This document shows, in pieces, positions 510-10,839 of a stretch of 64,000 bases of DNA. The stretch lies in NCBI RefSeq assembly GCF_044324785.1, contig NZ_CP172127.1; one strand, given 5' to 3'. Each line of letters begins with the position of its first letter. Within the stretch, counting starts at the first letter, position 1. Position numbers and translations under genes: made by a program. This DNA is from Escherichia coli. Lineage in GTDB: Bacteria > Pseudomonadota > Gammaproteobacteria > Enterobacterales > Enterobacteriaceae. Under the pieces are notes generated by a model that was given only the letters and a program-made list of their open reading frames with translations, searched no databases and was not told the DNA's origin.

Positions 510-878
510 GTGGTTTATCCCCTTTTTGCCGCGATTATAAAGGGGATATCCAACAATAACCCCACGACTCATCTCAATTATCTCGTCACGACCAGGCAAA
601 GCCCCAGCCCGGTCTCTTGCAGTCGCGTTCACGCCTGAATGACTTCTCCTGAACTTAAGTCTCAGACCTATTTGGCCGGTAATCCCTCTCAAATTTGCTC
701 ATTTTGCGTTCCGCCTTCCATCAACCTGTAACAGATCCAGCCATTTTCTGCGTAATTGTGATCTCAGTTGTAAAACGCAGATCATTATCTGTGTTTTGCA
801 GATTTAATGTTGACCTCAAAAATCATGTGGGTAAGTATGATGACCATCTAAGCAAAACAAAACACAGAGGATGACGCA

Positions 879-7220: not shown

Positions 7221-7356
7221 ATACTCAACACGATTCACCTCTGTTTCTGTGAAAACTGTGATGAAAATCTGTGATTCAAACAGGTTATTTTGAAAGTAAA
7301 CATCGGTTATGCGATAATCGCGCTAATGTGATGTAAAAAGATACAGGGGTGTAATC

Positions 7357-8115
7357 GTGGCGGCAAAAGACAGGATTCAGGCAATTAAGCAAATGGTTGC
7401 CAACGATAAAAAGGTGACAGTCTCAAATTTGAGTGGGATTTTTCAAGTAACCGAAGAAACCATTCGCCGCGATCTTGAGAAGCTGGAAGATGAAGGCTTT
7501 TTGACCAGAACCTATGGTGGTGCTGTTTTAAATACAGCGATGTTGACGGAGAATATCCATTTTTATAAGCGCGCTTCATCGTTTTATGAAGAGAAGCAGC
7601 TTATTGCACGCAAGGCACTACCCTTTATCGACAATAAAACCACTATGGCAGCCGATTCCAGTAGTACCGTTATGGAATTGCTCAAATTGTTGCAGGACCG
7701 TAGTGACCTGACGTTGCTAACCAACTCGGCGGAAGCGATTCATGTTCTGGCTCAATCAGAAATTAAAGTCGTTTCAACGGGGGGGGAACTAAACAAAAAT
7801 ACACTTTCCCTGCAAGGAAGAATTACTAAAGAGATCATCAGCCGCTACCATGTCGATATCATGGTAATGAGTTGTAAAGGTCTTGATATTAACAGCGGCG
7901 CGCTGGACTCTAACGAAGCGGAAGCTGAAATCAAAAAGACAATGATCCGTCAGGCGACAGAAGTTGCGTTATTGGTTGATCACTCTAAGTTTGATCGCAA
8001 AGCTTTTGTCCAGTTAGCTGACTTTAGTCATATTAATTACATAATAACTGATAAATCACCGGGTGCAGAGTGGATAGCATTTTGCAAAGACAATAATATC
8101 CAGCTGGTGTGGTAA
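7357..8115 (+). CDS. ydjF: DeoR-family transcriptional regulator YdjF (252 aa, GTG start)
   Basis: Track ORF; N-terminal HTH (VTVSNLSGIFQVTEETIRRDLEKLE) and C-terminal DeoR sugar-phosphate-binding domain; GTG at 7357. Confidence 0.88.
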   Translation: MAAKDRIQAIKQMVANDKKVTVSNLSGIFQVTEETIRRDLEKLEDEGFLTRTYGGAVLNTAMLTENIHFYKRASSFYEEKQLIARKALPFIDNKTTMAADSSSTVMELLKLLQDRSDLTLLTNSAEAIHVLAQSEIKVVSTGGELNKNTLSLQGRITKEIISRYHVDIMVMSCKGLDINSGALDSNEAEAEIKKTMIRQATEVALLVDHSKFDRKAFVQLADFSHINYIITDKSPGAEWIAFCKDNNIQLVW

Positions 8116-9510
8116 TTTAAGCACACGTTGTCAATATTATTTGTTCCTGCGCCTGGAAATAAAATGATGATAAAGATGCGGCAAGTGAATTTGCCGCAAT
8201 TGCTACCTTTTTAGCAAATCCGAGGCACCTAATGGAACAATATGATCAAATTGGCGCAAGACTGGACCGCTTGCCTTTGGCCCGGTTTCATTATCGTATA
8301 TTTGGTATTATAAGCTTTAGTCTGTTATTAACGGGTTTTTTGAGTTATTCAGGCAATGTTGTTTTAGCAAAGCTGGTAAGCAATGGATGGTCAAATAATT
8401 TCCTCAATGCCGCCTTTACCTCGGCATTAATGTTTGGTTATTTCATCGGCTCTCTTACCGGTGGGTTCATCGGTGATTATTTTGGGCGGCGCAGGGCTTT
8501 TCGCATAAATCTTCTCATCGTCGGTATTGCGGCAACAGGGGCCGCTTTTGTCCCTGATATGTACTGGCTCATCTTCTTTCGCTTCCTGATGGGCACAGGA
8601 ATGGGGGCGCTGATTATGGTTGGCTATGCTTCGTTTACGGAGTTTATCCCCGCGACGGTGCGTGGAAAATGGTCCGCGCGGCTCTCATTTGTCGGTAACT
8701 GGTCGCCCATGTTGTCTGCGGCGATAGGCGTGGTGGTTATCGCTTTTTTTAGTTGGCGGATAATGTTTCTGCTGGGTGGTATTGGCATACTGTTAGCCTG
8801 GTTTCTCTCAGGTAAATACTTTATTGAGTCGCCTCGATGGTTGGCGGGGAAAGGACAAATCGCAGGTGCAGAAAGCCAACTTCGTGAAGTAGAGCAGCAA
8901 ATTGAAAGAGAGAAGAGTGTTCGTTTACCCCCGCTTACTTTGAATCAGAGCAACAGCAAGGCTAACATAATCAATGGTACTTTCTGGCTGCTGTTTAAAG
9001 GGAAAATGTTACGACGTACATTAGTCGCGATTACTGTTTTAATTGCAATGAACATTTCACTTTATACCATCACCGTATGGATACCGACCATATTTGTTAA
9101 CTCCGGCATTGATGTCGATAAATCAATATTAATGACTGCTGTTATTATGATTGGTGCTCCGGTAGGAATATTTATTGCGGCATTAATTATTGATCATTTT
9201 CCTCGTCGATTATTTGGCTCCGCCTTACTTATTATTATTGCCGTGTTAGGCTATATCTATTCAATTCAGACTACAGAGTGGGCGATTTTAATCTATGGCC
9301 TGGTGATGATCTTCTTTTTATACATGTATGTTTGCTTCGCGTCGGCGGTTTATATCCCGGAGCTTTGGCCAACGCATTTACGCCTGCGCGGTTCAGGTTT
9401 CGTTAATGCCGTCGGACGGATCGTCGCGGTCTTCACGCCTTATGGCGTTGCGGCACTATTAACGCATTATGGGTCAATCACGGTGTTTATAGTGCTTGGC
9501 GTGATGTTAG

Positions 9511-10705
<1,195 letters not shown>

Positions 10706-10839
10706 TTAGTGCTCTGTGCGCTGGTTCTCTCCATTTTTGGCATCGAAACGCGGAAGGTGTCATTGGAAGAGATTTCTGAGGTGAATTAAATCTTTCGTTG
10801 ATGGCGTCAATTGCCAGAGGTACCACTGACGTGTTTTAT

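Follow-up and report, generated by a model that had tools for sequence, protein, structure and literature searches.

A 32-bp imperfect palindrome lies upstream of ydjL, the first gene of the ydjLKJIHG operon, in the 64-kb stretch of Escherichia coli DNA that we analyzed (the window; coordinates are positions in it). With moderate confidence, we interpret this palindrome as two adjacent operators of YdjF, a regulator encoded in the same cluster, which would repress a CRP-dependent promoter, probably with looping of the DNA. As judged from sequence comparison, the conserved unit is a shorter, 17-bp palindrome of the form ATCTGTG-N3-CACAGAT (the box), and the 32-bp palindrome is best read as the junction where two such boxes meet: two quasi-palindromic boxes standing side by side necessarily pair with each other, and a 32-bp palindrome is the result. 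The elements concerned are the following.

769-800, unstranded: imperfect palindrome with arms TGTAAAACGCAG (769-780) and CTGTGTTTTGCA (789-800) and spacer atcattat (781-788)
766-782, unstranded: box 1, the weak copy, AGTTGTAAAACGCAGAT; contains the left arm and starts 21 bp upstream of box 2
787-803, unstranded: box 2, the strong copy, ATCTGTGTTTTGCAGAT; the right arm of the 32-bp palindrome plus 3 nt, ending 6 nt before the -35
1186-1202, unstranded: intragenic box, TTCTGTGTTGTACAGAA; a near-perfect palindrome in codons F-L-C-C-T-E of ydjL
7267-7283, unstranded: ydjF promoter box, ATCTGTGATTCAAACAG; 6 nt to a -35 (TTGAAA, 7290-7295), then 17 nt to a -10 (GATAAT, 7313-7318)
7357-8115, + strand: ydjF, gene of a DeoR/GlpR-family regulator, the proposed binder

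An earlier, sequence-only reading of this DNA had described 12-nt arms, complementary at 10 of 12 positions around an 8-nt spacer, some 80 bp from the start of ydjL and, by its title, overlapping a near-consensus -35 hexamer. Direct reading confirmed the sequence of the palindrome and the TTGACC at 810-815, and conservation upholds the latter as a -35 (in 23 Enterobacterales, TTGAC varies little or not at all). The ATG of ydjL, at 879-881, is 79 nt past the end of the palindrome. The overlap proved wrong, as the site lies wholly upstream of the -35, at about -44 to -80. An equal inverted repeat (12-nt arms, at least 10/12 complementary, spacer of 0-20 nt) appeared in 17% of dinucleotide shuffles of the 369-nt yeaC-ydjL intergenic region, a frequency that would suit a functionless chance feature. 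What marks the element as real is its conservation and not this statistic, and the conservation across genera and phyla, the recurrence of the box at three sites in the cluster and the constraint on synonymous codons described below make the chance explanation very unlikely. Both arm mismatches (T771/G798 and G777/T792) are G.T on the + strand. The repeat can be extended inward to 14-nt arms with a 4-nt spacer, and with G.T allowed it becomes an uninterrupted 15-bp + strand stem (768-782 with 787-801), which 0.1% of shuffles matched. The window carries the minority allele at position 798: at least 90% of the 23 Enterobacterales promoters have A798, and with A798, as in K-12, the arms are 11/12 complementary. 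The exact 61-bp version (755-815) occurs in the form found in the window in 33 complete E. coli genomes and in the K-12 form in 1604.

To define the conserved unit, we used an alignment of 23 Enterobacterales ydjL promoters, in which four blocks stand out: TGTGATC at 757-763, invariant except for T762; positions 767-782; ATCTGTGTTTTAAAGATTT at 787-805; and TTGAC at 810-814, followed by a 17-nt spacer and AAnTAT at 833-838. The sequence-only reading had noted a position like that of a repressor operator before the leading gene of the ydj operon, and phylogenetic footprinting was among its suggested checks. A conserved cis-regulatory site is indeed present, and both the element and the -35 are conserved in Enterobacterales, but the 32-bp palindrome is not what is conserved, the unit being 17 bp. 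Outside Escherichia, pairing of the arms mostly falls to 7-10 Watson-Crick complementary positions out of 12 (6 in Budvicia). Enterobacillus and Symbiopectobacterium have lost the left arm, and in Serratia another box sequence stands in its place. The right arm together with 3 more nt is a palindrome in itself, reading ATCTGTG-TTT-CACAGAT without mismatch in Enterobacillus and Serratia and with 1 mismatch in Symbiopectobacterium.

The box recurs within the cluster. A palindromic position weight matrix (PWM) trained on sites from other genera was scanned over the window, and its three highest scores fell on box 2 (18.8 bits, the top match among all 64,000 positions), the ydjF promoter box (18.0 bits) and the intragenic box (16.2 bits). 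The description of a single site had thus missed two further copies, one inside ydjL and one at the ydjF promoter. Box 1 scored 7.95 bits and ranked 14th of the 64,000 positions. A PWM made from five Firmicutes/Atopobiaceae sites alone, which avoids circularity with the Enterobacterales, ranked the intragenic box first, 787-803 third and 7267-7283 fifth. Among 20 Enterobacterales loci, box 2 was the best match in 16, and Budvicia alone did not have it in its top three, whereas the box 1 position varied more, reaching 12.2-14.8 bits at an offset of 20-21 bp in Klebsiella, Intestinirhabdus and Serratia and having no counterpart in Enterobacillus and Symbiopectobacterium. Nineteen of the loci reach ydjF; in 18 of these the sites at about -92 of ydjL, about -92 of ydjF and +307 of ydjL were all among the five best matches, and in about half of the 19 they were the top three. 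The exception is Budvicia, with a degenerate promoter box. Three further candidates were rejected. A third box over the -35 (807-823) stayed under 2 bits in the main scan and ranked 119th (4.35 bits) when the matrix came from the Firmicutes/Atopobiaceae sites, and a fourth at 746-762 reached only 3.9 bits. The 12-mer half-site TGYAAAACRCAG, taken as the unit, gave 26 matches in the window at up to 2 mismatches against 23.8 expected, only its local cluster being notable.

For the intragenic box, the motif score is joined by a signal of a different kind. In 26 Enterobacterales ydjL sequences, synonymous variation is lowest at this box (rank 1 of 353 six-codon windows), with a synonymous entropy of 0.19 against a gene mean of 1.04, and the box is the second most conserved of the 1058 17-mers in ydjL. 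A perfect TCTGTG-TTG-CACAGA occupies the position in Budvicia and Serratia. The distance from box 2, 399 bp from centre to centre, varies by no more than 2 bp across genera and amounts to about 38 helical turns, so that the two boxes are in phase. As motif score and synonymous constraint are independent signals, together they argue for a functional DNA site inside ydjL, likely an intragenic auxiliary operator, and this site offers an example of a regulatory sequence that constrains synonymous codons.

The ydjF promoter box is likewise fixed in position: of the 19 Enterobacterales loci that extend to this gene, 18 have the box between -91 and -93 relative to its start, and it scores 15.1-21.3 bits in most loci and 8.9-14.7 bits in four. 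In the upstream part of the same promoter, CTGTGA repeats lie at 7247, 7257 and 7269; in other genera they correspond to a second box 21-22 bp upstream, which is degenerate in E. coli.

YdjF is the sole transcription factor found in the cluster. It has the N-terminal DeoR-type helix-turn-helix and the C-terminal sugar-phosphate-binding DeoR-C domain of the DeoR/GlpR family and matches the GlpR, AgaR, SrlR, FucR, YgbI, DeoR and UlaR models of NCBIfam over its full length (E 1e-22 to 1e-50). It stays below every equivalog cut-off (171.6 bits for GlpR, where the cut-off is 300), which marks it as a family member with a specificity of its own. Every complete locus, those of Firmicutes and Atopobiaceae included, has a ydjF homologue linked to the cluster, and a palindromic site at the adjacent operon promoter co-occurs with the regulator gene across genomes. 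The N-terminal sequence VTEETIRRDL is nearly invariant from E. coli to Atopobiaceae, which lends weak support, because TIRRDL is common to the whole DeoR family. YdjF stands on the Ishihama list as an uncharacterised E. coli transcription factor (PMC4797297), and a paper on silver nanoparticles that names ydjF reports merely a synonymous polymorphism in it.

We then considered the box outside the Enterobacterales. A search with YdjL, using one genome per species, gave 37 loci with close orthologues. By tblastn, the entire ydjLKJIHG-ydjF cluster is present in Escherichia, Citrobacter, Klebsiella, Raoultella, Yokenella, Budvicia, Serratia, Enterobacillus and others, and also in Lachnospiraceae, Eubacteriaceae, Clostridiaceae, Enterococcus, Anaerococcus, Megamonas and one Atopobiaceae genome. 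In the Firmicutes/Atopobiaceae carriers, YdjL is 76-84% and the YdjF homologue 41-56% identical to the E. coli protein; such YdjL identity across phyla is far higher than vertical descent would leave, and it points to exchange of the cluster between gut bacteria that belong to different phyla. The box has a place at these promoters too. The Atopobiaceae ydjL promoter contains the perfect palindrome TTCTGTGAAACACAGAA and two flanking copies with a period of 20-21 bp, the last of them over the -35, and ydjL promoter boxes were also read in Lachnospiraceae and Clostridiaceae (ATCTTTGAATCAAAGAA and ATCTTTAAAACAAAGAA) and in Eubacteriaceae (ATCTTTGAAACAGA and ATCTGCGAAACAGA). Box and -35 are separated by 6 nt at both E. 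coli promoters (ydjL and ydjF) and by 7 nt at six promoters of Firmicutes/Atopobiaceae.

This distribution bears on whether the conserved site might be bound by a regulator other than YdjF, for example CRP, as a second dimer, or a different global factor of the Enterobacterales, which we regard as improbable. It is true that in most species TGTGA occurs again at 769-773, that a 16-mer resembling a CRP site (4 mismatches) has its centre at 776.5, and that Crp shifts the promoter fragment in an electrophoretic mobility shift assay (EMSA; PMC8085971). However, the box also stands at cluster promoters of Firmicutes and Atopobiaceae, where the YdjF homologue is the only shared regulator, and TCTGTG-N3-CACAGA is incompatible with the spacing of a CRP site (TGTGA-N6-TCACA). 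Nor do LexA (CTGT-N8-ACAG) and TyrR (TGTAAA-N6-TTTACA) fit when their consensus sequences are compared with the sequence; a TyrR-, LexA- or PurR-type identity of the arms was rejected on the same ground of spacing.

The promoter next to box 2, and the candidate CRP site upstream of it, are made up as follows (invariance refers to the 23 aligned promoters).

757-772, unstranded: candidate CRP site, TGTGATCTCAGTTGTA; the left half and its flank (TGTGATCT, 757-764) match the consensus at 8/8 positions, the right half at 2/5
810-815, + strand: -35, TTGACC (5/6); T810, T811, G812 and A813 invariant, C814 in at least 90%
833-838, + strand: predicted -10, AAGTAT (3/6), after a 17-nt spacer; A837 invariant, A833, A834, T836 and T838 each in at least 90%
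867-870, + strand: Shine-Dalgarno sequence of ydjL, GAGG, by sequence reading; G869 invariant

A consensus promoter scan did not call this -35/-10 pair because the -10 matches at 3/6 positions only. Transcription of ydjL is expected to start at about 844-847, as predicted from the -10. Within the candidate CRP site, TGTGATCT is nearly invariant (TGTGA and C763 fully so), and polymorphism within the species lies in the N6 spacer, at 764-765. The site has 3 mismatches to the TGTGA-N6-TCACA core, a level at which matches occur 3.4 times per kb in the window. Its centre, 764.5, would be at -81.5 from a start at 846, class I centres lying near -61.5, -71.5, -82.5 and -92.5, and it shares six bases with box 1. 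The sequence-only reading had suggested footprinting with CRP, and involvement of CRP is already in print: PMC8085971 counts ydjLKJIHG among the operons for which it newly demonstrates activation by Crp in vivo and binding of Crp in EMSA. Positions 757-772 appear to be the only good CRP candidate at the ydjL promoter and are the probable Crp-bound site within that EMSA fragment. The ydjL promoter was also found to be silent in cultured cells and active in the mouse gut, one of few promoters that are so gut-specific (PMC6561318), which is indirect evidence for negative control. Two Dam GATC sites occur here, one in TGTGATCT (760-763) and another 20 bp downstream at the edge of box 1 (780-783). 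A promoter-like match on the - strand, TCAACA-18-GATAAT (813 to 784), overlaps the palindrome and faces yeaC; we discarded it as chance, with one match against 0.9 expected.

For binding by YdjF, repression, looping and induction, we infer the following scheme. Without inducer, a YdjF oligomer would sit on box 2 (about -59 to -43) and on box 1 (about -80 to -64), which is two helical turns upstream. Because neither box extends as far downstream as the -35, mere blocking of RNA polymerase is not the obvious mechanism; bound YdjF would instead mask the DNA with which CRP and the alpha C-terminal domain of the polymerase engage, leaving the core promoter free. The result would be anti-activation of a CRP-dependent promoter with a weak -10. 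YdjF would probably also bridge to the intragenic box and so close a repression loop, and through the ydjF promoter box it would regulate its own gene. A phosphorylated pathway intermediate, presumably the product of the YdjH kinase, would free the DNA from YdjF, and CRP would then activate.

Several points weigh against this scheme. Our literature search found no YdjF site, regulon, binding experiment or ydjF mutant. The sole ydjL start used in the literature differs from the predicted one and lies inside yeaC, about 478 nt upstream. In E. coli, box 1 is weak, with 4/12 mismatches. A good 15-mer box was not found in the Anaerococcus, Megamonas, Eubacteriaceae and 1XD42-1 cluster carriers, and the Enterobacterales sequences share descent and are not independent samples. 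Some of the statistics must also be read with care. When gapped 5-mer palindromes were enumerated in an unbiased way in 16 ydjL upstream regions from various genera and phyla, TCTGT-N5-ACAGA came first, in 8 of the 16, followed by other registers of the same palindrome; in 200 shuffled sets the top count averaged 5.4 and at most equalled the observed 8, so that the enumeration is supportive and, alone, not overwhelming. In 36 loci, 0.65% of positions in the 150 nt before ydjL carry TCTGTG-N3-CACAGA at 3 mismatches or fewer, compared with 0.71% before ydjF and 0.042% elsewhere, an enrichment of about 16-fold, but the motif was first noticed by eye and P values for its occurrence are therefore optimistic.

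A last point concerns geometry, since the boxes lie upstream of the -35 at a fixed distance, at two promoters and in three phyla, a pattern that is more activator-like than repressor-like. YdjF might accordingly act from the boxes as an activator or as a two-state switch and not as a plain repressor, which we consider possible although unlikely. As an activator, YdjF would sit about 15 bp upstream of the -35 and, under inducer, recruit RNA polymerase together with CRP, the intragenic box serving an AraC-like loop in the off state. A constant gap between box and -35 is typical of activators, the -10 is weak, and the DeoR family does count one activator among its members, FucR, to whose NCBIfam model YdjF has a match at E 4e-40. 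On the other hand, most characterised members of the family (listed in PMC4797297) are generally known to repress, the Atopobiaceae promoter has a further box over the -35, as do two Firmicutes promoters with weaker copies, an auxiliary site within a gene is the classic mark of a repression loop, and the documented activator of this operon is already CRP. The fully AraC-like version, in which YdjF would loop the promoter off without inducer and aid CRP and RNA polymerase from boxes 1 and 2 with inducer, seems to us doubtful; if true, it would mean that the whole module of promoter, operators and regulator had been transferred, its geometry unchanged, among Firmicutes, Actinobacteria and Enterobacterales.

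The pairing of the two arms also raises the question of a role in RNA. In transcripts arriving from upstream, by read-through of yeaC or from the start inside that gene, the 15-bp + strand hairpin (768-801) might work as a weak terminator or insulator, or might compete with a second pairing, between 782-798 and 858-874. Every arm mismatch being G.T on the + strand would agree with this, and the + strand folds at -17.4 kcal/mol (z = -5.7; loop CAUU) compared with -9.3 kcal/mol and 8 pairs for the - strand. With G.U allowed, the arms are paired at 10-11 of 12 positions in most genera and contain no A.C mismatch, Raoultella shows one double-sided compensatory change, and a terminator scan marks the hairpin with its U-rich tail. 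Positions 782-798 are complementary at 15 of 17 positions to 858-874, the ribosome-binding region with GAGG at 867-870; this pairing could matter only when a transcript begins upstream of 782. According to Adams et al., ydjL is indeed entered by transcription in LB, and Rho terminates it within the gene, at K-12 coordinate 1861188, which is position 1023 of the window (the MG1655 coordinate equals 1861332 + (879 - p) for window position p, as verified at two Term-seq 3' ends); the ydjL leader construct of that work began at the start inside yeaC, with a primer at about position 401. The alignment of the 23 promoters, however, shows no covariation, with 84.6% of cells paired compared with 85.1% after shuffling and 1 compensatory pair compared with 1.8 expected, which reduces the hairpin to a minor rival, one with little probability in our estimate. 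The left arm is dispensable in three genera, two of which, Enterobacillus and Symbiopectobacterium, have lost it and kept the right arm as a self-palindrome, and two other copies of the 17-mer, at the ydjF promoter and within ydjL, have no partner arm. As a terminator, the hairpin has only 4 G-C pairs among its 15 and is followed by the tail AUUUAAUGUU, and among the 3' ends listed in the Term-seq tables of Adams et al. none lies between positions 712 and 911. No Rfam family matched at E ≤ 1 and no tRNA was found between 400 and 1300. Adjacent palindromic operators, moreover, yield the potential for a hairpin automatically. A strong Term-seq 3' end is present further upstream, at K-12 coordinate 1861655 (position 556), 8 nt past a hairpin of yeaC (516-548) that has no U tract.

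Operators of YdjF, our favoured interpretation, would have counterparts in several well-known systems. GlpR at the glp operons (glpFK and glpD) is, as YdjF would be, a DeoR-family local repressor of a CRP-activated catabolic operon with several operators, arranged in tandem at about two helical turns. Yang and Larson are said to have described, in 1996, auxiliary operators within the coding region of glpD that act at a distance. The half-site of GlpR is TGTTCG/CGAACA and is unrelated to the ydj half-site TCTGTG/CACAGA; furthermore, one of the glpFK operators covers the -10, whereas no good box lies over the core promoter of ydjL. The glpFK operon has four GlpR operators and two CRP sites (PMC4117983), and each GlpR-controlled operon has 4-8 GlpR sites (PMC7567609). 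DeoR, the founding member of the family to which YdjF belongs, also has a palindromic operator, of 16 bp. Its repression relies on the cooperation of distant operators (three operators, with looping), and these, with the sequence TGTTAGAA.TTCTAACA, overlap the -10 regions of the deo promoters, unlike the ydjL boxes upstream of the -35. In the lac operon, an operator at the promoter (O1) is paired with an auxiliary operator in the first structural gene about 400 bp downstream (O2), the distance being 401 bp in lac and 399 bp in ydj, but LacI is from another protein family and lac O1 overlaps the transcription start. CytR is generally known as a repressor that blocks activation from beside or between CRP and RNA polymerase without occluding the core promoter, as is proposed here for YdjF; it differs in being a LacI-family protein that needs contacts with CRP, and nothing suggests such contacts for YdjF. 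Loop repression is discussed in PMC3592455.

The YdjF operator system would thus be an ordinary sugar-operon switch, and as a local DeoR-type regulator combined with CRP is a textbook mechanism, its general significance is limited. We found no published description of this site. The operator, the predicted three-site layout and the candidate CRP site are of value as handles for tests on YdjF. Reporters built on them could be used to screen gut metabolites for the inducer, and the box could serve to annotate the switch in many gut Firmicutes.

The genes around the element all lie on one strand, in the following order.

+ strand: end of msrB, yeaC (237-509), ydjL (879-1955), ydjK, ydjJ, ydjI, ydjH, ydjG, ydjF (7357-8115), ydjE

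Region 500-900 is 93.5% identical to K-12 and 100% identical to E. coli strain N3. It has no match in 1093 of 5426 complete E. coli genomes, and the ydj promoter or cluster may be absent from a sizeable minority of strains; at least one of these genome comparisons aligns over the yeaC part alone. The clusters of Firmicutes and Atopobiaceae have an additional open reading frame (ORF) of about 231 aa between ydjL and ydjK (for example 10074-10769 in locus L037, and at the equivalent position in L023, L025, L027, L029-L031 and L035), which the Enterobacterales cluster is without; its product reads like a sugar-phosphate 3-epimerase and not like a regulator. A hairpin with a T tract stands 3' of ydjF, at 8179-8203, and the Term-seq 3' end at K-12 coordinate 1854008 corresponds to position 8203, which gives ydjF its own terminator before ydjE. 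Finally, positions 871-882 read ATG ACG CAA TGA, a three-codon ORF that shares an ATGA overlap with the start codon of ydjL and is probably unused because its ATG directly abuts the Shine-Dalgarno sequence.

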